Shown here one piece after another: positions 4,569-24,795 of a DNA stretch of 64,000 nucleotides (position 1 is the stretch's first letter; each line of letters opens with the position of its first letter). The stretch spans positions 10,089-74,088 of the forward strand of contig JABJOX010000004.1 of NCBI GenBank assembly GCA_018664115.1, given 5' to 3'. This DNA comes from Candidatus Woesearchaeota archaeon (lineage in GTDB: Archaea; Nanobdellota; Nanobdellia; Woesearchaeales; GW2011-AR9). The translations under genes and the position numbers were made by a program. A model generated the notes under the pieces. The model was given only the letters and a program-made list of their open reading frames with translations. It had not been told where the DNA came from and did no database searches.

Positions 4569-4686
4569 TAATGGACGGCCATAGGGGCGCGGTTCACCTG
4601 TTCCCATTTCGAACACAGAAGTTAAGAGTGCCTCCGTACCGGGGTGTACTGCGTTTTTGCGCGGGAAATCCAGTAAGCTGTCCACT
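4569..4686 (+). rRNA. rrf: 5S ribosomal RNA (about 118 nt), stand-alone
   Basis: Sequence ggacggccataggggcgcggttcacctgttcccatttcgaacacagaagttaagagtgcctccgtaccggggtgtactgcg...gctgtccact. It carries the universal 5S loop motifs (CCCATTTCGAAC...GAAGTTAAG...GTACTG) and 5'/3' end complementarity (helix I). Confidence 0.85.
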
Positions 4687-4780: not shown

Positions 4781-5521
4781 ATAAAAGCATTAATCTTAGC
4801 TGCAGGGTACGCAACTCGTTTATATCCTTTAACAGAGAATCAAGCAAAGCCTTTGTTAAAAGTGGCAGGAATACCTATTGTTGAACATATTTTAAAAAAA
4901 TTAGAAAAACTTGATACTATTAATGAAATTATTATTGTAACTAATAACAAATTTTATGGTCATTTTATGGTTTGGTTAAACGATTATTCTTGTTCTAAAA
5001 ATGTAAAAGTGATTAATGATGGTACAATTAGTAACGATGACCGTTTAGGCGCTGTAGGTGATATTAATTATATTCTTAAAAATCAAGAAATCAATGATGA
5101 TTTATTGGTAATTGCGGGAGATAATCTTTTCGGATTTGAAATCAACAATTTTCTTAACCATTTCCAGCAAAAAAATAGTTCCCTTGTTGCTTTACATGAT
5201 TTAAAAGATAAAGAAAAAATAAAAAACAAATTTGGTGTTGCTATCTTATGCGACCAATTATCTAAAGTGATTGACTTCGAAGAAAAACCAGCTGAACCAA
5301 AAAGTACTTTAGCAGCAACTGCTTGTTATGTCTTTCACAAAGAAGATTTAAAACATGTTGAAGCTGCAGTTGAAAATGGTAAAGCAGACAATCCTGGTGA
5401 TTTAGTTAAATATTTAGTAAAAGAATCCGAAGTTCATGGATTTGTTTTCGATCATCATTGGTTTGATATTGGTAGCATGGAAGGTTTAAAACAAGCAGAA
5501 GAGGTTTACAGAAAACTATGA
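4781..5521 (+). CDS. Sugar-phosphate nucleotidyltransferase (NTP_transferase family). The conserved N-terminus (KALILAAGYATRLYPLT) lies upstream of the first canonical start (TTG at 4853), so the gene probably starts at ATA 4781 or has a damaged start.
   Basis: In-frame translation from 4775 gives SKIKALILAAGYATRLYPLTENQAKPLLKVAGIPIVEHIL, the classic G-x-G-T-R-L nucleotide-binding N-terminus. No ATG/GTG/TTG occurs between the stop at 4772 and 4853. Confidence 0.7.
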   Translation: MKALILAAGYATRLYPLTENQAKPLLKVAGIPIVEHILKKLEKLDTINEIIIVTNNKFYGHFMVWLNDYSCSKNVKVINDGTISNDDRLGAVGDINYILKNQEINDDLLVIAGDNLFGFEINNFLNHFQQKNSSLVALHDLKDKEKIKNKFGVAILCDQLSKVIDFEEKPAEPKSTLAATACYVFHKEDLKHVEAAVENGKADNPGDLVKYLVKESEVHGFVFDHHWFDIGSMEGLKQAEEVYRKL

Positions 5522-7257
5522 ATTCAGAATCTTACATAATTAGAATTGGTGGAGAAGCAGGTTGGGGAATAGCTTCAGCAGCAGACATTATTGCTAAACT
5601 TTTCATTAAATTAAACTATCATCTTTTTTCAAGTAAAGAATATATGTCTCAAATTAAGAAAGGCCACAATTTCCATACTATTAGAATTTCTAAAAAAAAG
5701 ATTCATGCAGATATTGACAGAATTGATTTGCTTCTTGCTTTAGATCAAACTACATTTGATACTCATTATGATTTAGTTTCAAAAAATGGAATCATTATTC
5801 ATGATGATAAAATTAAAATTGATCCTCAACAATTAAAAAACAAGAATTTAATCCAGATCCCTTTAACCAAGATTGAAGAGAAACTTAAAGAAAAAAATAT
5901 TCATAATGCTGTCTTTTTAGGGGCTTTAGTAAAAGCAATCGGAATTGATTATGCTCTATTGAGAAAAATAATTAAAGAAAGGTTTGTAGGTAAAGAGAAT
6001 CTTGTTAGTAAATTACTTTTAGCAGCAAAAGAAGGTGATGATTCCGTTAATAAAGTTAAAGATTTTCCTCTTCAAGAAGAAAATCAAGAAACAAAAACCA
6101 TTCCGGATTTCTTAGATGGAAATGAAGCCATCTCTCAAGGAGCATTAAAAGCGGGGTTAACATTTCACGTTCAATATCCCATGACTCCGGTATCAGGAAT
6201 TCTTCATTATCTTGCTAAAGAAGCAACAAAAAATAAAAGTCTAACAATTATTCAACCGGAAGATGAGATTGCGGGAATAAATTTTGCTCTTGGTGCATCT
6301 TATGCTGGAGCAAGAACAATGACTGCAACCTCGGGTGGGGGATTTGCTTTAATGGTTGAATCTTTTGGTCTCGCTGGCGTAGCAGAAATCCCTTTAGTTT
6401 TAATTGAAGGGCAACGGCCTGGTCCAGGAACTGGATTGCCTACAAAAACTGAACAAGGTGATTTAAAATTTGTTTTATCTGCAGGAACAGGAGATTTTCC
6501 TAAAATAATAATCGCTCCTGAAACTGTTGAAGGCTGTTACACTGAAACAAAACGTGCATTTTATCTGACAGAGAAATATCAAATTCCTGTAATTGTTTTG
6601 GTTGATAAACATTTAGCAGAAAGTTCTAAAACTTTTAACTTAAATGAAGAAGAAAAGAATTTCACTTTTGATTACGAGCAAAAAATTAATACCATCAATC
6701 AAGTTGACTCTTCTAAACTAAATTCTGACGGACTATTCAAACGTTATGAGAAAGAAGAAACTCAAAGAACAATTCCCGGAACAGAAAATGGAATATACAC
6801 TTGTGCTGGAGATGAACATGATGAAGTGGGAGTGATTACTGAAAATAGAGATATTAGAAATCAAATGATGCAAAGAAGGATGAATAAACTCAATCTTATC
6901 AAAGAAGAACTTCCAGTTCCAACACTTATCGGACCCAATGATGCAGATTTAACAATTGTTTCTTGGGGAAGTAATCACGGAGCAATCATTGAAGCCATGG
7001 AACTCTTAAATTCTGAAGAAAAGAAAGTCAATTTCCTTTCCATAAAATATATGGCCCCTTTCCAAGAGAATGAAATTCAAACAATCTTAGAAAAAGCAAA
7101 AAAATTAATCATTATTGAAAATAATTATTCTGCCCAATTAGCAAATCTTATCAGAGAAAAGACTGGAATCAATATAAAAAACAAAATCTTACGTTCCGAT
7201 GGCAGAACATTTACTGTTGATGATATTTACAATCAAATAAAACAAAACCAAAAATAA
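5518..7257 (+). CDS. korA: 2-oxoacid:ferredoxin oxidoreductase, alpha subunit (gamma-alpha fused, two-subunit archaeal type)
   Basis: 579 aa with an N-terminal gamma-like domain (IIRIGGEAGWGIASAADII) and an alpha catalytic domain. ATGA overlap with the upstream gene and followed directly by the beta subunit. Confidence 0.8.
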   Translation: MNSESYIIRIGGEAGWGIASAADIIAKLFIKLNYHLFSSKEYMSQIKKGHNFHTIRISKKKIHADIDRIDLLLALDQTTFDTHYDLVSKNGIIIHDDKIKIDPQQLKNKNLIQIPLTKIEEKLKEKNIHNAVFLGALVKAIGIDYALLRKIIKERFVGKENLVSKLLLAAKEGDDSVNKVKDFPLQEENQETKTIPDFLDGNEAISQGALKAGLTFHVQYPMTPVSGILHYLAKEATKNKSLTIIQPEDEIAGINFALGASYAGARTMTATSGGGFALMVESFGLAGVAEIPLVLIEGQRPGPGTGLPTKTEQGDLKFVLSAGTGDFPKIIIAPETVEGCYTETKRAFYLTEKYQIPVIVLVDKHLAESSKTFNLNEEEKNFTFDYEQKINTINQVDSSKLNSDGLFKRYEKEETQRTIPGTENGIYTCAGDEHDEVGVITENRDIRNQMMQRRMNKLNLIKEELPVPTLIGPNDADLTIVSWGSNHGAIIEAMELLNSEEKKVNFLSIKYMAPFQENEIQTILEKAKKLIIIENNYSAQLANLIREKTGINIKNKILRSDGRTFTVDDIYNQIKQNQK

Positions 7258-7259
7258 AA

Positions 7260-8015
7260 ATGACAGAATTAAAAACATTCAATCGAACTGAAATCCCTAA
7301 CTGGTGTCCTGGTTGTGGTAACTTTGGCATTATTGCGGGTGTAAAAAAAACACTCGCGGAATTAGACTTTAAACCAGAAAATACTGTGTTAGTTTCCGGA
7401 GTAGGCTGTTTTGCCAAACTTCCTTATTGGGTAAAAGTCAATGGTTTCGTTGGTTTGCATGGCAGATCGCTTCCAGTTGCGCAAGGAATTAAATTAGCAA
7501 ATCAAAATTTAAACGTTATCGCTTTTGGTGGTGATGGTGATGGTTATGGGGAAGGTGGCAATCATTTCACTCACGCTTGTAGAAGAAATATTAATATGGC
7601 TTATTTTGTTCATAATAATGGCGTTTTCGGTTTAACTACGGGGCAATATTCTCCTGCTTCTGAGAAAGGAAGGAAAAGTAAATCCTCTCCATTAGGTTCA
7701 ACAGAAAAACCAGTTAATCCTCTTGCTTTAGCAATCTCTGCTGGGGCAACTTTTGTGGCTCGAACTTATGCTGGAAATTTGAAAGAAATGGTCGAGATCA
7801 TGAAGAAAGCAATTCTTCATGATGGTTTTGCTTTTGTAGATATTATTCAACCTTGTGTCACATTTAATCCACAACACTCATTTGATTATTATAATGATAA
7901 AGTCTATTATCTAGATGATAAACATGATTCAAATAATAAGCTGCAAGCTTTAGAAAAAGCTTTAGAATGGGAACAAGAAGAAAAGTTTGCTTGTGGTATA
8001 TTCTATCAGGAATAA
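7260..8015 (+). CDS. korB: 2-oxoacid:ferredoxin oxidoreductase, beta (TPP-binding) subunit
   Basis: CPGCGNFG...GVGC cysteine cluster and GGDGDGYGEGGNHF TPP-binding motif (GDG-x-GxG-xN). Confidence 0.85.
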   Translation: MTELKTFNRTEIPNWCPGCGNFGIIAGVKKTLAELDFKPENTVLVSGVGCFAKLPYWVKVNGFVGLHGRSLPVAQGIKLANQNLNVIAFGGDGDGYGEGGNHFTHACRRNINMAYFVHNNGVFGLTTGQYSPASEKGRKSKSSPLGSTEKPVNPLALAISAGATFVARTYAGNLKEMVEIMKKAILHDGFAFVDIIQPCVTFNPQHSFDYYNDKVYYLDDKHDSNNKLQALEKALEWEQEEKFACGIFYQE

Positions 8016-8045
8016 ATAGTGATTATAACAATAAGAAAATAAAAA

Positions 8046-9368
8046 ATGAAAATTAGTATTTTTGGAACTGGATACGTTGGACTGGTAACTGGAGCAAGTT
8101 TAGCTAACTTGGGCCACGATGTTTTATGTGTGGATATAGACCAAAAAAAGATTGATTTAATCAATTCTGGAGAAATGCCTTTCTATGAACCCGGATTGAA
8201 AGAATTAGTTTTAAAAAATAAAGAAAACAAAAGAATAACATTTTCAACTGATATAGAAAAAGCAGTTCATTTTGCTGAAGCCATTTTTAATTGTGTGGGT
8301 ACGCCAATGAAAGAAGATGGTTCTGCTGATTTAAGTTATGTTTTTGAAGTAGTTAAGAGTGTAGTAAAATATTCTGATCAATATAAATTATTAATCAATA
8401 AAAGTACTGTTCCCCCTGGGACGGCAAAGAAATGTCAAGAATTAATAACAATCACGAACCCAAACGCAGAAATAGATGTAGCTTCTAATCCTGAATTCTT
8501 AAAACAGGGTAATGCTGTTTATGATTTTAATCACCCCGATAAGATTGTGGTTGGAGCCCAATCAGAAAAAGCATTTCAATTAATGCGTAAAGTGTATCAC
8601 GGTTTAATCAAGACTTATATGCCAATTATTGAAACTAACTGGGAAACTTCTGAAATGATTAAATATGCCAACAATTCTTTTCTAGCAACTAAAATAAGTT
8701 TTATTAATGAAATTGCCAATATCTGTAATAAAGTTGGTGCTGATGTGAAAACAGTTTCTAAAGCCATTGGAAAAGATTATCGGATTAGTCCTAAATTTCT
8801 TAATGCGGGCATTGGTTATGGGGGAAGTTGTTTTCCTAAAGATGTTCAGGCGTTAATTAACACTGCAAAAAGCTACAATTATCAACCCCAATTCTTACAG
8901 CAAGTTGAAGAACTTAATGAGAGACAGAAAACTATTCTTGTTCCTCAAATCATTGATAAACTTAAAGAGATTAATGGCAACCAAGTTACTATTTGGGGAT
9001 TAACTTTCAAACCAAAAACTAGCGATTTACGAGGAGCGACATCATTGAAAATTATTGAGGAATTGATAGATAATGGATTTAAAGTAAATATTTATGATCC
9101 TATTGCGTTAGAAGAAGTAAGAACTATCTTCTCAGACAAAGTTACTTATTCTAATTCTGTAAAAGATTCCGTTGTTAATAGCAATTTAATTGTTCTTGTA
9201 ACCGAATGGGACGAATTTAGAAATGTTGATTTCTCAGAATTAGGAAAATCAATGAAAACCAAAATTCTCTTTGATGGCCGAAATATTTATGAACCAGAGA
9301 CTTTAAAAGAGAACGGATTTGAATATTATGGAGTGGGGAGGAAAAATAAAAATCAAAACTTTATTTAA
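8046..9368 (+). CDS. ugd: UDP-glucose 6-dehydrogenase (nucleotide-sugar dehydrogenase)
   Basis: N-terminal Rossmann FGTGYVGLVTGASLA and catalytic GGSCFPKD motif, 440 aa. Confidence 0.9.
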   Translation: MKISIFGTGYVGLVTGASLANLGHDVLCVDIDQKKIDLINSGEMPFYEPGLKELVLKNKENKRITFSTDIEKAVHFAEAIFNCVGTPMKEDGSADLSYVFEVVKSVVKYSDQYKLLINKSTVPPGTAKKCQELITITNPNAEIDVASNPEFLKQGNAVYDFNHPDKIVVGAQSEKAFQLMRKVYHGLIKTYMPIIETNWETSEMIKYANNSFLATKISFINEIANICNKVGADVKTVSKAIGKDYRISPKFLNAGIGYGGSCFPKDVQALINTAKSYNYQPQFLQQVEELNERQKTILVPQIIDKLKEINGNQVTIWGLTFKPKTSDLRGATSLKIIEELIDNGFKVNIYDPIALEEVRTIFSDKVTYSNSVKDSVVNSNLIVLVTEWDEFRNVDFSELGKSMKTKILFDGRNIYEPETLKENGFEYYGVGRKNKNQNFI

Positions 9369-9670
9369 TATTATTAAAAAAAATGCTAAATCTGTAATTG
9401 GAGTAGATATTGAAAGCTCAGATATAGAAATAATTAATGGAAACGTGAAAACTATTAAATTAAATAAGAAATTTTACATTATTGTGGCAGGAGATCTTAT
9501 TGAACAATTATGTTGTCCCAGACCATTTTTAAATAATATCTGTTTGCATTTAAAAGATAAAAGTTCAATGATTAGTGTTACTCTTAGAAGAAAAAGGAAT
9601 AAGTTTAATTATTTATTTAGACTTATATTTGCAAACCATTTTCTGATAGTGTGTCATAAAAAGAATAGGG

Positions 9671-10378
9671 GTGAAATCTTCTCAGATGAATGATAAAAGA
9701 ATCAGGCTTGCTATAACACCAAGACATTTAGAGAATAGAGATGGTGAATTTTTTTCAGTACAAAAGAATTATTTAGATTTTTGGTCTAGTTATGGTTATG
9801 AACTTATTTTAATACCATTTATTGAAGATATGGATTTTGAGTCATTTTTTAATGAGTTAGGTATAAAAGGATTATTAATTGCTGGGGGTTATAAATATTA
9901 TTCTGAAAAGATTAGGGGATTTGAACATAAAGTTATTTCAGCGGCTTTAAACAAAAAACTTCCAATTATTGGTGTTTGTTGTGGACTTTGGAGCATTAAT
10001 GGTTTTTTTGGAGGAAAATTAAAATGGAACGAAAGACATAGTAAAAGAAATATTAAATTTGTTTCTCATTTTCTTTATAATAAAATTCTTGGAAGAAAGT
10101 ATATTCCGAAACACAAAATATTTCTCACTGGTGATATAATTAATAAATGTGAAGCAGAAGTTAACAGTTATCATAGAAAAGTAGTTAGTAAACTTGGTGA
10201 TGGTTTAAAACCTTTTATTTTATCTGATGATGGTGAAATTGAGGGGATTTATAATCTTGAGAAAAAAATTATTGCGGTTCAGTTTCATTTTGAACATGGT
10301 AATTGTAGTAAGTGGCTAGAAATAGATTGTATAAATTATATTAATAATCTATTTAATTTTAAAAATAATGGTGAATAA
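9671..10378 (+). CDS. Class-I glutamine amidotransferase-like / peptidase C26 (gamma-glutamyl hydrolase-like) protein
   Basis: PIIGVCCGLWSINGFFGG (nucleophile Cys in G-x-C-x-G) and a C-terminal AVQFHFE (His/Glu). Sits inside the insertion flanked by duplicated ugd 3' ends. Confidence 0.65.
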   Translation: MKSSQMNDKRIRLAITPRHLENRDGEFFSVQKNYLDFWSSYGYELILIPFIEDMDFESFFNELGIKGLLIAGGYKYYSEKIRGFEHKVISAALNKKLPIIGVCCGLWSINGFFGGKLKWNERHSKRNIKFVSHFLYNKILGRKYIPKHKIFLTGDIINKCEAEVNSYHRKVVSKLGDGLKPFILSDDGEIEGIYNLEKKIIAVQFHFEHGNCSKWLEIDCINYINNLFNFKNNGE

Positions 10379-10424
10379 TTATAAATTGAAATTTTTTGTT
10401 ATAATTGAGATCTGTTTGAGGTTA

Positions 10425-10583
10425 TATTAAAATTATTTTCATAGGGTGTTGGGATTTTAGAATTATTGACTATTATGGATTTAAAAAATTAATGAGAAAT
10501 AAAGTTTTGTTTAATATCCAAAATATTTATAAACTAAACGCTTTAAAAGAGAATGGATTTGAGTATTGTGGGGTAGGGAGGAA
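10425..10583 (+). pseudogene. Decayed duplicate of the 3' end of ugd (about 50 codons). Its stop overlaps the ATG of the downstream glycosyltransferase (ATGA).
   Basis: 10521-10583 aligns to 9281-9344 at about 84% identity (aaatatttat.aac.a....ctttaaaagagaa.ggatttga.tatt.tgg.gt.gggaggaaa). Weaker similarity continues upstream to about 10440. It translates as ...NIYKLNALKENGFEYCGVGRK*, compared with the ugd C-terminus NIYEPETLKENGFEYYGVGRK. Confidence 0.6.
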
Positions 10584-11441
10584 ATGATAGTATCTATTGT
10601 GATTATTTTTGATGAATTGAGGAAAGAGAAGCTTAATCGACTAATTAATTCTTTTAAAGATCAATTAAATCAACACGAATCAGAAGTAATATTGGTCCAT
10701 GAATCTATAGAAAAAGATAACAGTTTACATTTACCAACAAATTTCAAATATTTTATAGTTCCTCCTAAAAGGGGGATAGCATTTAATCGGAATAAAGGCA
10801 TAGAATACTCTAAGGGGGAAATAATTGTTTTTATTGATGATGATTGTTGGGTTCAGGAGAAATGGTTATCTTCTTTACTTGAATCTTTTAATGATAACAA
10901 GACTTTAGTAACTACTAGTGGAACAAGAATTCCCAAATCTAATCTTGTTGGTAACTGTATTTCTGCTTTAGGTTTTCCGGGCGGTGGTAATTTGGGCTTT
11001 GAAAAAGTTTGGAAAGTTTCTAATGAGGGTTATACCAATCATCTTGCTGTTGGAAATTCTGCTCTTAATAGAAAAGTTTTTGAATTAGTTGGCACTTTTG
11101 ACGAAAGTATGACTTTTGGAGCTGAAGATGCAGAAATATCTTATCGTTTAGAAAAAGCAGGAATATTAATAAAATATGTCCCTAATGCTTACGCTTATCA
11201 TGAAGCGAGAACTACTTTATCTTCATTTTCAAGATGGCAGATAAGGAGAGGAAGAGCAAATTATTATTTTAAAAAGAAGGTGGGTAAAGTGGGTAGTTTT
11301 ATTAAATTACGTCTGTGGTCGACTAAGAATATTTTATCGGAAAATAAATTCAATTTAAGACTTCCTTTAATTTTAATATTGTTATCTTTTAGTTTTGTTT
11401 TACAACAGATGGGTTACATTTATGAGAGGTTTAAAAAATGA
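10584..11441 (+). CDS. Glycosyltransferase family 2
   Basis: VFIDDDCWVQEKW (DxD region), GT-A fold pattern and C-terminal TM segment. ATG at 10584 is preceded by GGGAGG. The track start at 10566 is an alternative upstream start. Confidence 0.8.
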   Translation: MIVSIVIIFDELRKEKLNRLINSFKDQLNQHESEVILVHESIEKDNSLHLPTNFKYFIVPPKRGIAFNRNKGIEYSKGEIIVFIDDDCWVQEKWLSSLLESFNDNKTLVTTSGTRIPKSNLVGNCISALGFPGGGNLGFEKVWKVSNEGYTNHLAVGNSALNRKVFELVGTFDESMTFGAEDAEISYRLEKAGILIKYVPNAYAYHEARTTLSSFSRWQIRRGRANYYFKKKVGKVGSFIKLRLWSTKNILSENKFNLRLPLILILLSFSFVLQQMGYIYERFKK

Positions 11442-12907
11442 AAGTAATATTAGTGAATCCAAGAATTTATGATGTACCTAATCATCCTTTAGGTATACTC
11501 TATATCGCTGGTTATTTAGAAAAAAATGGTTTTGAAGTTGAAGTAATAGATCCTAATTTTGATGAATCTGCAATCGAAATTGCAAAAAAAATAATCTCTC
11601 TCAACCCCGACGTGGTTGGGATTAGTACAAGAACTCCACAATTTGATCATGCTAAAAATATTGCCTCTCATCTAAAATTATCTTCTGATATTCCAATTGT
11701 TTTTGGGGGTCCACATCCAACAGTTCTTCCTCAAGAAGTATTAAAAGAAAATTGTATTGATTTTGTAGCTATTGGTGAAGGCGAAATAACTTTTTCGGAA
11801 CTTTGTGAAGCTTTGAAAGAAAATAAGGGATTTAAGGATGTAAATGGTATAGGTTATAAAAAAAACGGAGAACTAATCTTTACAGAATCAAGGGAATTAA
11901 TTCCAGATTTAGATTCAATACCTTTCCCTGCAAGACATCTTCTTCCTTCAAAATGGTACTTTGCCCCTCCTAGAATAAGGGGGATATGGACAAAAAGCAC
12001 CGCTACTATTATGGCTTCAAGAGGTTGTCCATATCGGTGTATTTTTTGCGGAAGCCACCGTATTTTTGGAAGAAAAACTAGATTTAGATCTCCAGAGAAT
12101 ATTATTGAAGAACTTAAACATTTAAGAAATAAATACCATATTGATGCGGTCTGGTTTGCTGACGATACTTTCACACTTCACCCCGCTTGGGTAACCAAAC
12201 TTTGCAGTTTAATAAAACAGCAAGGGTGGAACGATTTTAAGTGGGTAGCGCAAGCAAGAGTTAATACTGTTAGTTATGAATTACTTAAAACAATGAAATC
12301 TGCGGGATGTGTGCAAATAGATTTTGGTGTTGAATCTGGTTCGCCAAAAGTGCTAAAAATATTAAAAAAAGATATAACACCTGAAAAAGTAATTGAGGCT
12401 TTTAATATTGCTAAAAAAGCAGGATTGCTTAGATATACTAGTTTTATTATAGGAACTCCGGGAGAAAAAGAAGAAGATTTGAGATTAACATTTAAACTCT
12501 TAAAAAAAATAAAACCTGATTATGTGGATTTTTATTTTATGACGCCTTATCCAGGTACAGAAGTTTACCAAATTGCAAAAGAATTAGGTGTTTTTGAAAA
12601 AGGTGTTTCTTTTAATAAATGGCTTCTTGGAAAACACAGTGATAAGCCAGTTATGTGTACAGATTTGTCTGAAAAAAAAATTATTGAATGGAGATCAAAA
12701 TTGTACAACGCCAGTTTTATTAGGAATTATAAAACTTTGATGAGAAATCCTTCTTTTATATTTGGGGGGTTGATGATAGCTTTTAAAGGAATTGGTGGTT
12801 TAAGAAAAGGATTAGGCCGTTTTTTTAAAACTGGCAAAATAGATAGTATTTTTGTAGAATTATTAGTAAATTATCGTATGAAAACAAAAAAACAATTTTA
12901 TAAATAA
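11438..12907 (+). CDS. Cobalamin (B12)-binding radical SAM protein (class B radical SAM, putative methyltransferase)
   Basis: N-terminal B12-binding Rossmann-like region (GILYIAGYLEKNGFEVEVIDPN) and radical SAM CxxxCxxC (ASRGCPYRCIFCGS). Confidence 0.8.
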   Translation: MKVILVNPRIYDVPNHPLGILYIAGYLEKNGFEVEVIDPNFDESAIEIAKKIISLNPDVVGISTRTPQFDHAKNIASHLKLSSDIPIVFGGPHPTVLPQEVLKENCIDFVAIGEGEITFSELCEALKENKGFKDVNGIGYKKNGELIFTESRELIPDLDSIPFPARHLLPSKWYFAPPRIRGIWTKSTATIMASRGCPYRCIFCGSHRIFGRKTRFRSPENIIEELKHLRNKYHIDAVWFADDTFTLHPAWVTKLCSLIKQQGWNDFKWVAQARVNTVSYELLKTMKSAGCVQIDFGVESGSPKVLKILKKDITPEKVIEAFNIAKKAGLLRYTSFIIGTPGEKEEDLRLTFKLLKKIKPDYVDFYFMTPYPGTEVYQIAKELGVFEKGVSFNKWLLGKHSDKPVMCTDLSEKKIIEWRSKLYNASFIRNYKTLMRNPSFIFGGLMIAFKGIGGLRKGLGRFFKTGKIDSIFVELLVNYRMKTKKQFYK

Positions 12908-12909
12908 AA

Positions 12910-13794
12910 ATGCAAAAAGTAAATCCTTTGATAAGTGTTATAATCCCCTCATATAATTCAGAAAGATTTATCTCAAAATGTTTATTTTCTTTATTATCTC
13001 AAAAAGTTGATTTTGATTATGAAATCATTGTTGTTGATAGTTCAAAAGATAACACTTCAGAAATAATAAAAGATAAATTTCCTTCCGTTAAACTTATCCA
13101 CTTAAAAGAACAAACCTTGCCGGGAGCGGGAAGAAATATAGGGATTTCAGAAGCTAAAGGTAAAATAATAGCATTTACGGATTCTGATTGTATTGTTAAT
13201 AATAATTGGCTCCAAACCGCTTTAGAAAGTATTAATAAGGGGTATAGTGTTGTTGGTGGATCTGTTAAAAACGCAAATTCACAGACACTAATTAGTATTG
13301 CTGATTACTTCCTTACATTTAACGAATTTCTTCCTACAATGCCAAAGAGAGAAGTTTTATTTATGCCCACATGTAACCTTATTTGTAAAAAAGAAGTTTT
13401 TGAAGATATCGGTGGTTTTCCTCCCCATTTAGCAGCAGGTGAAGACACTATTTTTAATTATAAAGCTTCCAAGAAGTATAAATTATTATTTAATCCAAGA
13501 ATAAAAATTAGTCACAATAATCGTGATTCTTTTAAAAAATTCTTTAAACATCATTATAATTTTGGATTACATGCAGCATTACTTCGAAAAAAATATAAAT
13601 TACCAGGTAATATATTTGTTAAATATCCCCCTTTGATTGTGTTAATTCCTTTTGTTCGTTTTTTTTTAATATCTTTAAGAATGGTCCGTTGGAATTGGAA
13701 AATGTTACCTTCTTTTATTGTTAGTTCTCCATTAATTTTCATTGGAATATTGATTTGGAGTGTGGGTTTTATGAAAAACATGTGGTGGTCTTAA
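12910..13794 (+). CDS. Glycosyltransferase family 2
   Basis: ISVIIPSYNSERFISKCL...TDSDC (DxD), GT2 pattern. Confidence 0.8.
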   Translation: MQKVNPLISVIIPSYNSERFISKCLFSLLSQKVDFDYEIIVVDSSKDNTSEIIKDKFPSVKLIHLKEQTLPGAGRNIGISEAKGKIIAFTDSDCIVNNNWLQTALESINKGYSVVGGSVKNANSQTLISIADYFLTFNEFLPTMPKREVLFMPTCNLICKKEVFEDIGGFPPHLAAGEDTIFNYKASKKYKLLFNPRIKISHNNRDSFKKFFKHHYNFGLHAALLRKKYKLPGNIFVKYPPLIVLIPFVRFFLISLRMVRWNWKMLPSFIVSSPLIFIGILIWSVGFMKNMWWS

Positions 13795-15101: not shown

Positions 15102-16019
15102 ATGTCTCTGATTATAATAATCTTTATAAATTACCTATTAATCATAACACTAATGTTACATAAACTTATGAATAAATATAATCGGTTTTCATTATTTCGT
15201 TATTTATATCATGGTTTTTTCCGGTTGTACTGTGATCATGTTAGTGATTACGTGATGATATCTTTTCCTAAAAGTGGCCATACTTGGTTAAGAGTTATGC
15301 TTGCCAAAGCATTTTCACTTCATTATGGTCTTTCTTCTCTTAATCTTGATCTTATTTTAATGGCAAAAGAAAAAAAAGGGATTCCAAAAATTGCTATTTA
15401 TCATGAAATATCTCCATTATTCTCAGTTAACTTCAGTTTAAAAAATAAAAAATTTTTGGGTTCATACGCAGAATCTGAAAAGGTTTTCATACGCACTCCT
15501 CTTAAAAAGAAAAAAATTATTTTTCTTGTACGAGACCCCAGAGATGTTGTAGTGTCGTTATTTTTTCATTTGACAAAGCGAAACAATTTTTATTTTAGAA
15601 ATGAGATGTCTCATTTTCTTAAAGAACCATTTAGTCTTACTAAAATCTTAAATTATATGAATCTTTGGTGTAAGGAAATGCAACGACGCCCAAATGAATT
15701 TTTATTTATTCGTTATGAGGATATGAAAACAAATACTGCAGAACAGTTAAGAAGAGTATTAGATTTCTTGGAAATAAATGTATCATATGATATTTTGAAT
15801 GAAGCTGTTGCTTTTGGTTCAATTGATAACATGCGTAAGATGGAAAAATGCAATTTGTTTGCCGATTATCGTTTGCAAGCAAAAAATCCAAGTGATCCTG
15901 AATCTTATAAAGTAAGAAAAGCTAAAGTGGGTGGTTATACTGATTATTTAAATCCTCAAGACTTGGAATATATAAATTTACGAATAAGTAAAGAGCTAAA
16001 TTCTGTATTTGGATATTAA
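15102..16019 (+). CDS. PAPS-dependent sulfotransferase with N-terminal membrane anchor
   Basis: 5'-PSB motif ISFPKSGHTWL (PKSGTTW-like) and 3'-PB motif VRDPRDVVVS (RDPxDxxVS). Hydrophobic N-terminus MSLIIIIFINYLLIITLML. Confidence 0.8.
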   Translation: MSLIIIIFINYLLIITLMLHKLMNKYNRFSLFRYLYHGFFRLYCDHVSDYVMISFPKSGHTWLRVMLAKAFSLHYGLSSLNLDLILMAKEKKGIPKIAIYHEISPLFSVNFSLKNKKFLGSYAESEKVFIRTPLKKKKIIFLVRDPRDVVVSLFFHLTKRNNFYFRNEMSHFLKEPFSLTKILNYMNLWCKEMQRRPNEFLFIRYEDMKTNTAEQLRRVLDFLEINVSYDILNEAVAFGSIDNMRKMEKCNLFADYRLQAKNPSDPESYKVRKAKVGGYTDYLNPQDLEYINLRISKELNSVFGY

Positions 16020-18895: not shown

Positions 18896-19615
18896 ATGGA
18901 TCAAAAAAAACATATTATAACTATAGATGGTTCAGGTTGGACTGGCAAATCTTCTACTGCAAAAGCATTAGCAAGAATTCTTAACTTTAAGCATATTAAT
19001 ACAGGCTCAATGTTTAGGGCTGTAGCTTGGAAAGCAAAACAATTAGGTGTTTTATTAGAAGACAATCAGGAAATAATAAAAATTACTAAAAATATGGTGA
19101 TTAACTTTAGAATAGAAAATAATTCTCAGCAGATTTTTGTTGATGGAGAAAATATAACTGCATTTTTATTATCTTCTTCATTGGTACCTTTAGCAGGAAA
19201 AGTTGCTCAAATTCCCGAAGTAAGAAAAGTTCTTTTGGAGCTTCAAAGGAAAATGGCAAAGGAAGGAAATGCTATCTTCGAAGGAAGAGACATGGGAACA
19301 GTTGTTTTTCCTAATGCTGATTGGAAATTTTATCTTGAAGCGTCTGTGCCTATTAAGATTAAAAGATTTCTGAAGATGCTTTCAAATGAAGAAAAAAATA
19401 AATATACTCTTGAAGAAGTAAAAAAGATAATAGAAGAAACAGACGAAAAGGATAAAAATAGAGAATTTGCTCCATTAAGAAAACCAAACAACGCAATCTT
19501 TTATGATAATAGTGAAAGTCCAACCCCTGAACAAGATGCAATTGTATTATGGTATTATATCACCCATCAAAAAGAAATTATTGATAATGCTTTAATTTTA
19601 CAATCTAGATTATGA
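18896..19615 (+). CDS. cmk: Cytidylate kinase (bacterial-type CMP kinase)
   Basis: ITIDGSGWTGKSSTAKALARILNFKHINTGSMFRAVAWKA. This matches the Cmk N-terminus pattern IDGPxGxGKxT...LDTGAMYRAVA. Confidence 0.75.
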   Translation: MDQKKHIITIDGSGWTGKSSTAKALARILNFKHINTGSMFRAVAWKAKQLGVLLEDNQEIIKITKNMVINFRIENNSQQIFVDGENITAFLLSSSLVPLAGKVAQIPEVRKVLLELQRKMAKEGNAIFEGRDMGTVVFPNADWKFYLEASVPIKIKRFLKMLSNEEKNKYTLEEVKKIIEETDEKDKNREFAPLRKPNNAIFYDNSESPTPEQDAIVLWYYITHQKEIIDNALILQSRL

Positions 19616-20328
19616 ATGAAACAAAAACATTAACAACAAAAGAACTTAGAGTTAAAGGAAGAAAAAAATGCTGGAGTCCATCCCAACGTTTTTGGATGGA
19701 AGTTTCTCTTTATTTAACTACACCGTTCTTAAGAACTTCCATTACTCCTAATATGATTACTGTTACTTGGATTATTTTAGAGATTTTTGCATTTTATCTT
19801 TTTACTTTGGGCGAATATTGGATTAATGTTCTAGCTGTAATTTTGTTCAATTTTATTGCATTAATTGGGGATCATATTGATGGTAATCTTGCAAGGATGA
19901 AAGAAAAGTTCAGTTTACTGGGACCTTATTTAGAGCAGTTAGGAATTTTCTTTGGTACACCTTTAATTTTTCTAGGATTAGCGATTGGAAATTATTTTCG
20001 TTATCAAAATTTTCTTTTTTTAATAATTAGTCTTGTAGGGGTATTGTTTTGGCTCTTTGAGAAGATTATTAGAATAAATCCTGTTTGGTTCAGTGAGAGG
20101 CAAGAAGAAATAGTAAAGAAGTTTTACGTTAAAGCATCATTTAGATCCGCTTCAAAGACAAGAATATTTTTTGAGATATTTCGTAGAGGGCAACCTTTTA
20201 ATTTCCTTTTCTTTTGTGTTGTTTTTGATTATACTCAACTTGCATCTTTGGTATATTCTTTTCTTTTCCTTTTTGAGTTTTGTAGAAAACTTTATATTAA
20301 TATAAAGAATCTAAATAAAAAAGTGTAA
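19612..20328 (+). CDS. CDP-alcohol phosphatidyltransferase-like integral membrane protein (divergent motif)
   Basis: GDHIDGNLAR...LLGPYLEQLG fits the D-x2-D-G-x2-A-R part of the CDP-OH phosphotransferase signature. Multi-TM, 238 aa, ATGA overlap with cmk. Confidence 0.5.
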   Translation: MNETKTLTTKELRVKGRKKCWSPSQRFWMEVSLYLTTPFLRTSITPNMITVTWIILEIFAFYLFTLGEYWINVLAVILFNFIALIGDHIDGNLARMKEKFSLLGPYLEQLGIFFGTPLIFLGLAIGNYFRYQNFLFLIISLVGVLFWLFEKIIRINPVWFSERQEEIVKKFYVKASFRSASKTRIFFEIFRRGQPFNFLFFCVVFDYTQLASLVYSFLFLFEFCRKLYINIKNLNKKV

Positions 20329-20385
20329 AGATGCATGATTTGAATTCTAACTTTTTCTTTTATAATATCTCAAAAAAATTTATCA

Positions 20386-21108
20386 TTAAAAATCGTCTAC
20401 TTGTGAAAATACAGATTTTTCATTAGCAATATATTGGGTAATTATTTTTCTTACTAGTTCTAGAAAAAAGAATAAAGTATAGAGGATTAATGTGTAGTTT
20501 GGGTATCCAAAAACAACTCCCCAAAACAAAATATTGAAAAAGTGTTCTAGTCTAAATAGGGCAAAAACATTATAAATTAGTTTATGTTGGAATCTTAAAA
20601 GAGACTTTTTCCCAGTATCACTAATTAAGTTTCTTTGTTCTTTTGGATACCACATTGGATTAAGCGTTATTGCTTTATTCAGTAAAAAGAATATTACTGC
20701 TAAGATTCCGTAGAGCAAGTAAATTGCATTATTATACCACCGAAATACTCCAATTGAAAATGTAAGTAATAAAATTGAGTTGGCAAGATAGTGACCAAGC
20801 TGATCAAGGTAAATTCCATTAATGGAAAATTGTTTTCTATAACGGGCAACAATGCCATCACTACAATCTATAATAAAGAATGCTTGAAAAAATATAAGGG
20901 AGATAATCATAGTTAATTGATCTCCTGTTGCTAGAAATAATGCCGAAATTATTTGTCCAATAATCCATATTATTGTAATTTGATTCGGAGTTAAAGGAGT
21001 ATAAAGAAATAACTTTGCTGGATAATAAGCTAAATTATTCATCAACCGATAAATTGGGTCTCCTCTCTTTGCATTTGCTTTTTCTTTAAGCTCACGAATC
21101 GTCGGCAT
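20386..21108 (-). CDS. CDP-alcohol phosphatidyltransferase-like integral membrane protein (paralog, convergent)
   Basis: IIDCSDGIVARYRKQFSINGIYLDQLG gives D-x2-D-G-x2-A-R...G-x3-D. Multi-TM, 240 aa. Confidence 0.55.
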   Translation of the reverse strand: MPTIRELKEKANAKRGDPIYRLMNNLAYYPAKLFLYTPLTPNQITIIWIIGQIISALFLATGDQLTMIISLIFFQAFFIIDCSDGIVARYRKQFSINGIYLDQLGHYLANSILLLTFSIGVFRWYNNAIYLLYGILAVIFFLLNKAITLNPMWYPKEQRNLISDTGKKSLLRFQHKLIYNVFALFRLEHFFNILFWGVVFGYPNYTLILYTLFFFLELVRKIITQYIANEKSVFSQVDDF

Positions 21109-21176: not shown

Positions 21177-23978
21177 TTATTGTCCTTTTAAGAATAATAT
21201 TAATTGATTAACACTTTCATTTAAACTAATTTGTTGGGTTTCTAACTTTATGTCTGGACTATCTGGAATTTCATAAGGATTACTTTCTGCAACACCAATA
21301 AAATTATTAATTTCTCCGGCTAATGCTTTTTTGTAAAGTCCTTTCGTATCCCGCCTGATACATTCATCTAAGGAAGCATTGATGAATAGTTCTTTGAAGT
21401 TTTCTCCAACAATTAAACGGACCATCGTCCGATCTTCTTTGTAAGGAGAAATTATTGGTACTAAAACAAAATCATTATTTGCTGCTCTTTCTTTAGCTAA
21501 TTCCGCAATCAAACGATTATTTTCTCTTATATCCTCTCTAGAGAATCCAAGATCTTTGTGTAACGTATCTCTAACAACATCACCATCAAGAATTTCAACT
21601 TTATTTCCAAGACTTTCAAGTTTCTTTTTAAGTTCTAAAGCAATTGTTGTCTTTCCAGATCCAGACAAGCCTGTAAACCAGATTACTTTTCCTTCTTTGT
21701 TAGATATGTTATTTATTTTATTATATTCATTATTTTCATTTGGCTCAACTTTCTTCATTTCTTCTCTAACAAAAACTTCTTCTCCATTTTTAATACTTTC
21801 AACAATTAAACTGGAGACTTCTGGACGCATAAACCACTCTGGTGGAACTTGACCCAATTCAAATCTTTTTCTTGCTTCTGTTCCACTAATATGAAGCGGT
21901 TCTAACTCTTCGCCACTCTCCGTTTCTTTTTCGTGGACATGATGATTCAATTTATCCGAGTAGAATACTTTTCCATATTTTATAGGCTTAATCCCGATTT
22001 CAGGAAACTTATCAAAGATTTGATGCGAAGCATTAGGATGGTAGTAATCGCCTACACCTGTATGATCTCTCCCAACAATAAAATGGCTACACCCAAAATT
22101 TTTCCTGCAGAGAGCAGTAAATATAGCTTCTCTGGGACCAGCATAACGTGAGAATGTTGAAAATGTTGAAAATACTACTTTATTTTTTGGATAAATATTT
22201 TTCATCATTTCTTCATAACTTTTAATTATAAATTTAGAATTATAATCCCCAACTTTCTTTTTCCCAATAATGGGGTGAACAAATAATCCATCACAATTTT
22301 CTTTTTTCATTGCATCTAATTGAATGAACTCATGACCGCGATGAATAACATTTCTAGTATGGAAACCCACTATTTTAACCCACCCTCGATCTTCAAATAA
22401 TTTTCTGACTTGCTTTGGAGTTAGTTCATATTCTTTATGTTCAGATTCTCTTCTTTTAATCAAATTAATTTTTCCTCCAAGCAAAACAGGTTTCATATTA
22501 AAGACTATTTTTGCCCCAGGATGATTTTTATCATCAGTACAATACAATTTACTGATTACTTCTTCTTTATCATAATTATACTTTTCTTTAACTTTCATCG
22601 TTGCAACAATTTCATTCTTATCATTGGTTAAAATAATAGTTTCATCTAAATCAATTTGACTAGCAATCTCTTCAGAAACATCTAAAGTTACTGGTAATGG
22701 CCATACAACCCCATTTTTAAGTTTCATATGATCTAAGATCCCTTGAAAATCTTCTTTACCCATAAAACCTTCAATCGGACTAAATGTCCCAATAGCTATC
22801 TGTTCTACATCCATTAATTGTTCAGCATTCAATTTAATCTTTTTTAAAGAGTTTACATTTTCTGGAATCTCTTTGACAAATCTTTCAACTAATTTTCCTC
22901 CGTGTGGTTCAATTAAAGAACTAGTTTGAGAATTATCAGAGAGGTATTCATGATGGCTAATATTCTCAATATCATCGACATACTTTGAATGTTCAATCAG
23001 TTTATTTAACATATTAACACATTCCATTGGGTTTTCACCAATGGCTGTTTCTGCAGAAAGGATTAACCCACTTGCTCCGTCAATTATTGTATTTATTACA
23101 TCATTAACTTCTGCCCTAGTTGGTTTTTTATTAACAATCATAGATTCTAAAAGATTAGTTGCAATATATACAGGAGTATTTCTTTCTTTGGCTTTTTTAA
23201 GAATAATCTTTTGAATCAGAGGTATTTTTTCAATGGGGACTTCTTTACTCATATCTCCCCGATCCATCAATACAGCATCAGATTTCTCAATAATTTTATC
23301 AATGTCATGTAGTGATTCTTCTGCTTCAACTTTAGAAATAATATACATAGCATTATTAGTTACTTTCCTAACTTCATCAAGATCTTGGCTTTTTCTGACA
23401 AAGGACAAAGCTAAATGGCCAATCCCCTCTTCTAGCCCAATATTGATTGATTGTTTATCCTTTTCAGATAATACTGGTAAATGATAAACTTTATTGTTTC
23501 CAGGACTAACAATTACTGCTTTATTGTTTCCTAAATTACCTTCAGTCATTATTCTTGCAGAAATGTATCCCTCTTTAATAGTTGAAATATCAGAAATTTT
23601 AAGTATTAATGTATCAAAATCTACAAAAAGTAAATCACCTGTCTCTAATTGTTCTAAAATGTGCCCTGGAGTTAAACAGATCTCTTTTTTGTTTCCTATA
23701 ATTTTATTGCCATAAATTTTAATAATCTCGCCTTCATTATAATGGATGATTTTCTCCTCTAAATCACCAGTTCTTATTTGTGACCCCTCTGTATCAATAA
23801 TAAATGGAATATCAACTTTCTTTGCAATTTTAATGAAATATCTCAAGTCTTCAATACTAGAATGAGACATATTAATTCTAACAAAATCTACGCCCTTATC
23901 TTTTATTTTTTTCAAATCTTCTTCAGTATTTGTTGCTGGACCTAAAGTAACAATAATCTTAACATTTTTTTCTTCCAC
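21177..23978 (-). CDS. Tri-domain protein: pyruvate-kinase-like TIM-barrel domain + ATP sulfurylase + APS kinase (PAPS synthase with N-terminal PK-like module)
   Basis: N-terminal: KIIVTLGPATNT...VRINMSHSS...DTEGSQIRTG...ISKVEAEES...MDRGDMS...IATNLLESM (PK barrel motifs, no C-terminal regulatory domain). Middle: LIEPHGGKLV...GFHTRNVIHRGHE...GRDHTGVG...ISGTEARK (ATP sulfurylase). C-terminal: VIWFTGLSGSGKTTIA...ILDGDVVR (APS kinase P-loop). Confidence 0.85.
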   Translation of the reverse strand: MEEKNVKIIVTLGPATNTEEDLKKIKDKGVDFVRINMSHSSIEDLRYFIKIAKKVDIPFIIDTEGSQIRTGDLEEKIIHYNEGEIIKIYGNKIIGNKKEICLTPGHILEQLETGDLLFVDFDTLILKISDISTIKEGYISARIMTEGNLGNNKAVIVSPGNNKVYHLPVLSEKDKQSINIGLEEGIGHLALSFVRKSQDLDEVRKVTNNAMYIISKVEAEESLHDIDKIIEKSDAVLMDRGDMSKEVPIEKIPLIQKIILKKAKERNTPVYIATNLLESMIVNKKPTRAEVNDVINTIIDGASGLILSAETAIGENPMECVNMLNKLIEHSKYVDDIENISHHEYLSDNSQTSSLIEPHGGKLVERFVKEIPENVNSLKKIKLNAEQLMDVEQIAIGTFSPIEGFMGKEDFQGILDHMKLKNGVVWPLPVTLDVSEEIASQIDLDETIILTNDKNEIVATMKVKEKYNYDKEEVISKLYCTDDKNHPGAKIVFNMKPVLLGGKINLIKRRESEHKEYELTPKQVRKLFEDRGWVKIVGFHTRNVIHRGHEFIQLDAMKKENCDGLFVHPIIGKKKVGDYNSKFIIKSYEEMMKNIYPKNKVVFSTFSTFSRYAGPREAIFTALCRKNFGCSHFIVGRDHTGVGDYYHPNASHQIFDKFPEIGIKPIKYGKVFYSDKLNHHVHEKETESGEELEPLHISGTEARKRFELGQVPPEWFMRPEVSSLIVESIKNGEEVFVREEMKKVEPNENNEYNKINNISNKEGKVIWFTGLSGSGKTTIALELKKKLESLGNKVEILDGDVVRDTLHKDLGFSREDIRENNRLIAELAKERAANNDFVLVPIISPYKEDRTMVRLIVGENFKELFINASLDECIRRDTKGLYKKALAGEINNFIGVAESNPYEIPDSPDIKLETQQISLNESVNQLILFLKGQ

Positions 23979-24092: not shown

Positions 24093-24794
24093 TCACTTCT
24101 CCCAAAACAATTCTCTATTTACAAAAGCTCTCACTAATTTATCATTAAAAGCAGTATCACCTAATTTTATTCTTTCTGGGTGCCAAGTTACTGCTGCAAT
24201 TGGATAATCCGGATGATAAGCAGCTTCTATTGTTTCATCACTAGAACAGACAGCAAACGCTTTTAATTGCGAAGATAATATTTCGGGAAGAATTGCTTGG
24301 TTATGATAGGAATTCACTAAAACTTTTTCCAAGCCAAAAAATTTTTTAGTTTGATCATCAGTTAAAATAACCTCATGTTCGGCGGCCACATGTTTAACTT
24401 GGCTGTTTGTTTCATCTTTTATACTTTGTAATAAACTACCAGCAAAATGAACATTAAGATAATGTAACCCCCGACAAATACCTAAGATAGGAAGTTTTTT
24501 TTCAATTGCGTAATCGACAATTGCTTTCTCAGTTCTCTCCCGATCTAATGACCATTTGTTAGGAAATTTCATTTCTTGTCCGTACAAGCTGGGATGGACT
24601 CCGTTACCTCCGGTTAGAATTACACCTTCAACACCTAACTCTTCTAAATATTCTGCTGGATTTTCTAAAGAATTAGGAATTGGCACTAAAGTAATTCCAA
24701 ATTTAGGATAATATTGAGTATATTCTGTTTCCAGGATATCAACTGTTCCACCATATTCTGTTTCCAGTTGTTTTGTAGTAATTGCAACTCTCAT
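24093..24794 (-). CDS. Class-I glutamine amidotransferase-like / peptidase C26 (gamma-glutamyl hydrolase-like)
   Basis: KKLPILGICRGLHYLNV (Cys nucleophile) and NSYHNQAI (His). Paralog of 9671-10378. Start is 2 nt after the stop of the 1515-aa gene. Confidence 0.7.
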   Translation of the reverse strand: MRVAITTKQLETEYGGTVDILETEYTQYYPKFGITLVPIPNSLENPAEYLEELGVEGVILTGGNGVHPSLYGQEMKFPNKWSLDRERTEKAIVDYAIEKKLPILGICRGLHYLNVHFAGSLLQSIKDETNSQVKHVAAEHEVILTDDQTKKFFGLEKVLVNSYHNQAILPEILSSQLKAFAVCSSDETIEAAYHPDYPIAAVTWHPERIKLGDTAFNDKLVRAFVNRELFWEK

Positions 24795-24795
24795 T

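Follow-up and report, generated by a model that had tools for sequence, protein, structure and literature searches.

Homology-facilitated illegitimate recombination was put forward as the origin of the orphaned 3' gene fragments that are found in rearrangement hotspot (Rhs) and type VI secretion system (T6SS) loci (PMC5361080). In the O-antigen clusters of Escherichia coli, gene remnants make up 9 of the 68 anomalies recorded across 178 serogroups, and anomalies of this sort have been taken to point to a fairly recent event (PMC7685785). Here we describe a scar of the same kind behind ugd, the gene for UDP-glucose 6-dehydrogenase, in a surface-glycan island of Candidatus Woesearchaeota archaeon. 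The window, by which we mean the whole stretch analyzed, comprises 64,000 nucleotides of contig JABJOX010000004.1 (GCA_018664115.1, positions 10,089 to 74,088, forward strand). The genome has a GC content of 30%, the organism is uncultured, and the sources of the homologues are labelled Woesearchaeota or Nanoarchaeota, which places them among the DPANN archaea. Between ugd and the glycosyltransferase gene that follows it in relatives, the window carries an insert whose far side is bordered by a decayed second copy of the ugd 3' end, and we conclude that homologous exchange in the ugd 3' end and illegitimate joints come together in this scar. Its parts are as follows.

8046-9368, + strand: ugd, UDP-glucose 6-dehydrogenase, 440 codons, recognized by Pfam and TIGR03026.
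8952-9344, + strand: the low-divergence tract of ugd shared with the relative L085, its right end being junction J1.
9213-9344, + strand: copy 1 (c1), which comprises the final 44 sense codons of the intact gene.
9328-9693, + strand: MT', the open frame of a methyltransferase remnant, in origin a small (~180 aa) class I S-adenosylmethionine (SAM) methyltransferase, with a stop that overlaps the GATase ATG by 8 nt.
9344-9346, no strand: J1, the left junction, where ugd, at its final sense codon (AAA), meets methyltransferase codon ~29-30.
9686-10378, + strand: GATase, an intact gene of the class I glutamine amidotransferase-like/peptidase C26 type, 230 aa.
10379-10452, + strand: AT-rich spacer with the right junction J2 (about 10440-10452) and no ugd homology above chance.
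10453-10587, + strand: copy 2 (c2), a pseudogene remnant of 135 nt comprising the last 44 ugd codons and the stop, with a TGA that overlaps the GT2a ATG.
10584-11441, + strand: GT2a, a family 2 glycosyltransferase (GT2; Pfam Glycos_transf_2), a backbone gene of the island that directly follows ugd in relatives.

The alignment of c1 (9213-9344) with c2 (10453-10584) is ungapped over 132 nt at 75% identity, and the similarity is strongest at the 3' end, where the last 64 nt (9281-9344 versus 10521-10584) are 84.4% identical as opposed to 66% for the first 68 nt. The local alignment score of 66 compares with a maximum of 22 among 1036 tiles of the same window (both strands) and of 19 among 500 shuffles, placing the similarity well beyond the AT-rich background against which the original prediction, made from the sequence before this analysis, had asked for it to be judged. 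That prediction had put the recurrence at the last ~64 nt of ugd and at ~84% identity, a figure confirmed here within a longer repeat, and had traced weaker homology back to about 10440; the homology does reach 10453, but DNA alignment revealed nothing above chance upstream of that position. A protein-level hint of further extension (CWD-FR versus EWDEFR) was rejected, the corresponding DNA score being lower than those of the shuffles. Translated in the ugd frame, c2 reads DFRIIDYYGFKKLMRNKVLFNIQNIYKLNALKENGFEYCGVGRK up to its stop codon, and the TGA (10585-10587) overlaps the GT2a ATG (10584) as ATGA, so that both the open frame and the stop/start overlap with the GT2 gene, as first proposed, are seen in the translation. 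The NCBIfam TuaD model matched c2 at model positions 389-431 (E 2e-4). A Pfam search of c2 gave no match, and instead of the three domains of a UDP-glucose/GDP-mannose dehydrogenase the last 44 codons alone are present. Judged by its sequence, c2 is a remnant of the ugd 3' end and not a gene.

To this evidence can be added the agreement between assemblies. An identical ugd protein is encoded on seven contigs (ENA, NCBI GCA_018662135.1, JGI and Logan assemblies), and within positions 7000-13000 each of the seven matches the window at 100% identity along the part that it shares, four of them spanning the whole 6 kb and three spanning 3.4-5.3 kb, up to their own contig ends. Because seven independent assemblies are identical, and because copies that are 75% alike cannot collapse, an assembly artefact is excluded; the earlier worry about a misassembly or collapsed repeat is thereby answered by seven assemblies from four sources.

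The relationship of c2 to other ugd genes was examined next to its pattern of substitution. The identity of c2 is 75% to c1, 75% to L085, 72% to L088 and 70% to L089, and 55-64% to the ugd genes of the more distant relatives that we term backbone-type. An origin from such a distant backbone-type ugd was ruled out, as c2 groups with c1 and L085; the peptide LKENGFEY is common to these three. In a three-taxon count of c1, c2 and L085, private changes numbered 3, 30 and 3, respectively, the three in c1 all lying at third positions. The 30 changes on the branch of c2 are spread 9/12/9 over the codon positions with a GC-to-AT bias of 16:7, and the GC content is 24% in c2 versus 32% in c1. At positions conserved in at least 80% of 23 relatives, c2 keeps 13 of 17 residues and c1 keeps 17 of 17, and the conserved (F)DGRN motif is gone from c2, DGR having become NIQ. 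Taken together, the identities and the flat distribution of the 30 changes indicate that c2 goes back to a ugd belonging to the same sub-lineage and that its decay was free of selection at the protein level, in agreement with its initial description as a decayed duplicate of the ugd 3' end. The decay is uneven along c2, the first 88 nt having taken 27 changes and the final 44 nt just 3 (p=0.002); the spared end abuts the GT2a start and includes the sequence GGGAGG. These last ~44 nt probably still serve the initiation of GT2a translation or its expression.

At the other end of the insert, the intact ugd matches all three UDPG_MGDP_dh domains (PF03721, PF00984 and PF03720) above their cut-offs and TIGR03026 with 470 bits versus a cut-off of 190. 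Codons 1-433 (8046-9344) are ancestral, the nearest homologues being proteins of 433 aa that end in GRK, and they are followed by a C-terminal tail of seven codons, NKNQNFI (9345-9365), and TAA, which confirms the predicted terminus GRKNKNQNFI. The sequence at J1 is GGG AGG AAA / (A)ATA AAA ATC AAA ACT TTA TTT (the slash marks the junction), and a codon-level comparison with the methyltransferase genes of L075 and L079 showed that recognizable methyltransferase codons start directly there. Because these codons abut the last sense codon of ugd, the NKNQNFI tail is methyltransferase DNA read in another frame, and the annotation of ugd should be corrected to that of a protein with a foreign 7-residue tail. 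J1 may include a short microhomology, GGAG(G)AAA.

The 300 bp after ugd had been described as non-coding DNA. This does not hold, as 9345-9685 is a truncated methyltransferase that is still an open frame, MT', whose open reading frame (ORF) begins within the ugd 3' end. A tblastn search with the L079 methyltransferase matched the window at 9331-9669 (E 2e-25), and an exhaustive phmmer search with MT' yielded 76 further matches (E<=1e-3), mostly of 160-250 aa and aligned from their residue ~25-60, including proteins of 176-200 aa in which the alignment starts at about residue 25. Compared with 16 full-length homologues, MT' is without the first ~28 codons (including the SAM-binding motif I, VLDIGS) and without ~43-50 internal codons, and conserved residues have been replaced (FD by FY, EH by EQ and NPG by CPR). 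With the glycine-rich motif I missing, MT' does not classify as a class I SAM-dependent methyltransferase; no family passed in a Pfam scan of MT', and NCBIfam gave a weak match to UbiG. As an attempt to date the truncation relative to c2, we counted family-conserved positions, of which MT' retains 17 of 23 (74%), a value within the 71-96% of the 16 full-length members. MT' is a dead methyltransferase, and the 121-aa "hypothetical" ORF in several assemblies is this gene.

The second gene of the insert is intact. GATase scores 61.6 bits with PF00117 (GATase) and 61.3 bits with PF07722 (Peptidase_C26), both over the Pfam cut-offs, and its catalytic Cys (GVCCG) and His-x-Glu (QFHFE) align with GICRG and QWHPE of PDB 7d4r. 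It is 56-64% identical to homologues in other DPANN glycan loci and retains 101 of the 124 positions at which two relatives agree. The best NCBIfam match is gamma-glutamyl-CDP-amidate hydrolase (NF045546, E 8e-15), at 55.4 bits versus a cut-off of 250, so that the protein is not a member of that family. In L075-77 and L079 the methyltransferase to which MT' is homologous immediately precedes the GATase homologue, its stop and the GATase start overlapping by 8 nt as in the window, and the methyltransferase plus C26/GATase1 pair is a conserved two-gene module elsewhere in DPANN archaea. The original prediction of an insertion carrying a GATase1-like gene was therefore right as to the gene, but the insert is a two-gene methyltransferase-GATase module of which the methyltransferase is truncated. 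The insert is slightly AT-richer than its surroundings (GC 22-28% versus 30-33%), a difference that is not diagnostic. No transposase ORF is present in 9345-10452, and the only inverted repeat at the insert edges (28 nt, 79%) is at chance level, being no better than 19 other pairs in 6 kb. A transposon or insertion sequence (IS) was rejected on these two grounds and because the duplication is 132+ nt rather than a short target site.

A GT2 profile scan of genomes gave 31 archaeal loci, 22 of them, all from distant relatives, holding both ugd and GT2a. GT2a orthologues across Woesearchaeota and Nanoarchaeota are 56-65% identical, and the backbone order is conserved across the loci as a nucleotidyltransferase gene (NTP-transferase), ugd, GT2a and GT2b, often with a radical-SAM/SPASM gene. 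The exact ATGA stop/start overlap between ugd and GT2a is present in 9 of the 22 loci (for example L028, ...ggggtaggaaggaaATGA), the two genes are adjacent (-8 to +37 nt) in a further 7, and in 6 (L010, L014, L015, L024, L029 and L035) other DNA of 0.8-2.9 kb separates them. Neither a GATase nor a methyltransferase occurs at the ugd/GT2a junction in any of the 22 loci, and a ugd remnant was sought in the six loci with other inserts and found in none. Since the relatives share the ATGA overlap or the adjacency without a methyltransferase or GATase there, c2 preserves the ancestral junction, as had been suspected when the c2-GT2 overlap was first noticed. Further along the backbone, a B12-binding radical SAM gene (11438-12907, + strand) separates GT2a from GT2b, its junctions being clean and of the ATGA type; GT2a and GT2b are adjacent in many relatives, and this gene looks like another lineage-specific insertion, one without a scar.

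The closest relatives carry something else behind ugd. A ugd protein search returned relatives at 91% (L085, the closest), 88% and 85% identity, all with proteins of 433 aa that have no tail, and no genome with a ugd identity between 91% and 100% was found in this search. The contigs L085-89 share the arm of NTP-transferase, 2-oxoacid:ferredoxin oxidoreductase (POR) alpha/beta and ugd with the window, and after the ugd stop they carry an epimerase and a different GT2 (GT2x) that is 39% identical to GT2a; GT2a and the methyltransferase-GATase module are absent after ugd in the 91/88/85% relatives. By blastn the window and L085 are collinear from ~3755 to exactly 9344 (L085 position 11299) at 79-89% DNA identity, and the collinearity ends there. 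Within ugd the divergence from L085 is uneven: the tract 8952-9344 has 11 mismatches in 393 nt as opposed to 131 in the remaining 906 nt, and the mismatch density changes at about 8952, from 29/250 nt to 11/393 nt. At third positions the divergence is 91/300 (30%) in ugd nt 1-900 versus 9/133 (7%) in nt 901-1299 (Fisher p=1.3e-8), with no such drop in other pairs (window-L088, 41% versus 41%; window-L089, 43% versus 44%). Because the drop is specific to the window-L085 pair, we interpret it as a homologous-recombination tract of ~390 nt at the ugd 3' end, and because the tract ends where the two genomes cease to be homologous, the ugd stop marks where a conserved anchor gives way to a region that can be swapped. 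Elsewhere in ugd, a patch of 100 nt (8346-8445, + strand) has 69% identity to L085 versus 83-94% on its flanks and may reflect either another small patch of recombination or a loop that evolves fast.

We next considered how this arrangement may have arisen. The ancestral state would be the backbone NTP-transferase-ugd-GT2a-GT2b with its ugd/GT2a ATGA, and a two-gene module of a small SAM methyltransferase and a C26/GATase1 hydrolase would have come to lie between ugd and GT2a in this lineage. The joint of ugd with methyltransferase codon ~29 is out of frame, and it is this joint that destroyed the methyltransferase and gave ugd its 7-residue tail. At the right edge, DNA ~70 nt past the GATase stop is joined to another copy of ugd at codon ~390, and of this copy the last 44 codons survive. 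The methyltransferase is interrupted at codon ~29 and ugd at codon ~390, breaks that call for at least one illegitimate joint. On one side of the insert there is a homologous exchange tract, ending at J1, as the proposal of homology-facilitated illegitimate recombination expects. The route that we favor, with a probability of roughly 0.5, is such recombination with one-sided homology, leaving the resident 3' end behind. DNA from a related strain would pair through the ugd 3' end (the ~390-nt tract, visible as a mosaic), the non-homologous far end of the incoming DNA would attach by an illegitimate joint within the 3' end of the resident ugd, so that the last ~135 nt of that gene would be duplicated or left behind, and c2 would then decay neutrally except for the ~44 nt before the GT2a start. 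Illegitimate joints of this kind typically show 3-10 nt of microhomology, and these archaea are not known to have a competence or transfer route. The data establish the anatomy, the ancestral junction, the mosaic tract, the position of the breakpoint and the neutral decay; the direction and number of events, the identity of the donor and any present role of the remnants are our inferences. The earlier idea of a cassette insertion by homologous recombination at the ugd 3' end is upheld by the mosaic tract with L085, but the novel joints need an illegitimate step in addition.

Several points weigh against this route. A displaced resident c2 should differ at ~35-41% of third positions, the sum of background divergence and decay, and the 11-12 of 44 observed (25-27%) mildly disfavor it (p~0.02-0.07, our own estimate from small counts for c2 versus c1 and L085). 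The flat 9/12/9 pattern would also fit decay from an identical copy better, and the route costs one more event, as the donor must already have carried the fusion of ugd to MT'. Neither a donor nor a pre-insertion genome was found, the nearest GT2a being 65% and the nearest GATase 64% identical. The recombination tract could stem from an unrelated exchange, for example a replacement of the downstream cassette in the L085 lineage itself, and the possible microhomology at J1 is drawn from methyltransferase genes that are just ~40-50% identical.

A possible, though less probable, alternative is an insertion in one step with duplication of the target, in which the DNA from methyltransferase codon ~29 to ~70 nt past GATase was copied or ligated at the ugd stop through two illegitimate or microhomology joints, for example by replication template switching, and the last ~135 nt of ugd were re-copied. 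On this account c1 and c2 were the same at birth and the tract shared with L085 is a separate event. Pure decay from an identical copy predicts the even spread of c2 changes over codon positions (9/12/9), the near-trichotomy of c1, c2 and L085 (3, 30 and 3 changes) is in keeping with it, a single event accounts for both joints, and GGAG(G)AAA would supply a microhomology at J1. However, the coincidence of J1 with the end of the recombination tract is left unexplained, a 135-nt duplication is unusual for simple end-joining, c1 and c2 share one derived site only against all three close relatives, and no donor sequence was found to account for J2.

More doubtful is the fusion of two neighboring clusters by deletions in an ancestor with two ugd genes, namely a ugd-epimerase-GT2x-MT-GATase cluster (as in L075, L085 and L090) and the ugd-GT2a-GT2b backbone, one deletion having removed what lay between the ugd stop and methyltransferase codon 29, another what lay between the far side of GATase and codon ~390 of the second ugd. 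The POR-bearing sub-lineage does have ugd-epimerase-GT2x(-MT), and L075 has ugd-epimerase/GT2x-MT-GATase; relative to this ugd-epimerase-GT2x-MT order J1 resembles a deletion junction, and MT' has a further internal deletion. Such a fusion is nevertheless less parsimonious, needing a recent duplication of ugd within the lineage and at least two deletions; a tandem ugd pair in this island occurs in no sampled genome, and c2 is equally close to L085 and c1. Finally, although short AT-rich repeats at 70-80% identity are common in a genome of 30% GC, chance similarity or an assembly artefact (a chimeric join or collapsed repeat) is refuted by the score of 66 versus 22, the in-frame TuaD match, the ATGA common to relatives and the seven identical assemblies.

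As to the present role of the two remnants, we think it unlikely, yet conceivable, that they are kept as working parts, that is, as pseudogene fragments exapted as coupling spacers in a very compact genome. If so, c2 may supply the GT2a leader, in which GGGAGG stands two bases ahead of the ATG and an upstream ORF of 31 codons (ATG at 10492) finishes in the ATGA overlap, and MT' may relay translational coupling from ugd to GATase through its ugd-internal start and its 8-nt overlap with GATase. Limited support comes from the last 44 nt of c2, which have accumulated changes four times more slowly than its remainder (3/44 versus 27/88, p=0.002). In a simulation, a 115-codon frame had a ~1-10% likelihood of staying open at 10-25% neutral change, a result that depends on the assumed decay and is no more than suggestive.

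Some features of the surrounding island are recorded here for completeness. The POR alpha/beta genes (5518-8015, + strand) lie between NTP-transferase and ugd, as they also do in L085, L089 and L090, and in more distant relatives NTP-transferase and ugd are adjacent without POR genes between them; ATP-citrate-lyase-like genes occupy the equivalent place in L075 and lie just downstream of ugd in L079. A 5S rRNA gene (4571-4686, + strand; Rfam 66.9 bits) is located just upstream of the island NTP-transferase gene; it is the sole Rfam match, and no tRNA genes were found in the 64-kb window. In L085 a LAGLIDADG_2 homing-endonuclease-like ORF (5542-6582) lies between the 5S region and the NTP-transferase gene, and in L078 a DDE transposase fragment (10144-10623) lies near the GATase homologue. 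Mobile elements are thus present in the islands of relatives, not at the scar studied here. A 933-aa fusion of a pyruvate-kinase barrel, PUA_2/ATP-sulfurylase and adenosine 5'-phosphosulfate (APS) kinase (21177-23978, - strand) and a sulfotransferase gene (15102-16019, + strand) together suggest synthesis of 3'-phosphoadenosine 5'-phosphosulfate (PAPS) for sulfated glycans; L075 has these genes too, with APS kinase as a separate ORF.

The window contains other relatives of the inserted GATase and of its usual partners. GATase is ~27-33% identical to the other C26 gene of the window, which is the closer Cj1417-like paralogue. This second C26/GATase gene (24093-24794), for which the best NCBIfam match is again gamma-glutamyl-CDP-amidate hydrolase (80 bits, cut-off 250), adjoins, within 24093-29343 (- strand), an ORF of 1515 aa that has CTP_transf_like, PEP-utilizers, PPDK_N and NTP_transf_3 domains; those of the PPDK type recall Cj1418 (glutamine kinase), and the nucleotidyltransferase domain recalls Cj1416. 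L078 holds the same Cj1416/Cj1417/Cj1418-like trio as separate genes, and the trio could represent a phosphoramidate-type (O-methyl phosphoramidate-like, MeOPN-like) pathway of glycan modification in a DPANN archaeon. Two paralogues of the CDP-alcohol phosphotransferase family are encoded at 19612-21108; the one at 20386-21108 (- strand) is 56-58% identical to a gene that divergently adjoins the GATase homologue in L078 and L081, and CDP-OH_P_transf genes occupy the corresponding GATase-adjacent position in L080 and L082-84. The GATase of the window thus appears ~10 kb from its commonest partner, a CDP-alcohol phosphotransferase.

The locus provides a base-level, comparatively supported example of how a hypervariable surface-glycan island of DPANN archaea is remodelled. 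Its conserved left arm, ending at the ugd stop, serves as a recombination anchor, the cassettes after ugd differ by lineage, and illegitimate joints can splice in new modules, leaving gene fragments behind. The original view of the scar as a concrete example of gene acquisition by a glycan island is supported, with corrections to the insert, the joints and the order of events. For the inserted gene the nearest described counterpart is Cj1417 of Campylobacter jejuni, the gamma-glutamyl-CDP-amidate hydrolase of the O-methyl phosphoramidate pathway (PMC11800397), which is likewise a C26/GATase1 protein with Cys-His-Glu in a surface-glycan locus; unlike Cj1417, the inserted GATase falls below the equivalog cut-off, and in relatives it usually lies next to a small methyltransferase or to a CDP-alcohol phosphotransferase. 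For the locus as a whole, bacterial O-antigen and capsule clusters (reviewed for the E. coli O-antigen in PMC7685785) offer the same picture of conserved genes that bound a variable locus and of truncated genes that mark the exchange of segments, but the island described here is archaeal, without IS or H-repeat, and its remnant is old, with ~23% neutral change on its branch. A likeness in mechanism exists to the Rhs/contact-dependent inhibition (CDI) loci and the Vibrio cholerae T6SS effector-immunity arrays (PMC5361080), where, as in the route that we favor, homology is provided by a conserved gene upstream, incoming DNA is attached at its far end by an illegitimate joint and the old 3' end is left downstream. 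In contrast to those arrays, this is a glycan-biosynthesis island of a DPANN archaeon with a single event, and the remnant may be a true duplicate and not a displaced allele. The kind of scar is a known one, of which the locus adds a new, well-resolved instance in DPANN archaea. Bacterial O-antigen, capsule and toxin loci already follow the same logic, so that the locus extends a known principle to uncultured, host-dependent archaea.

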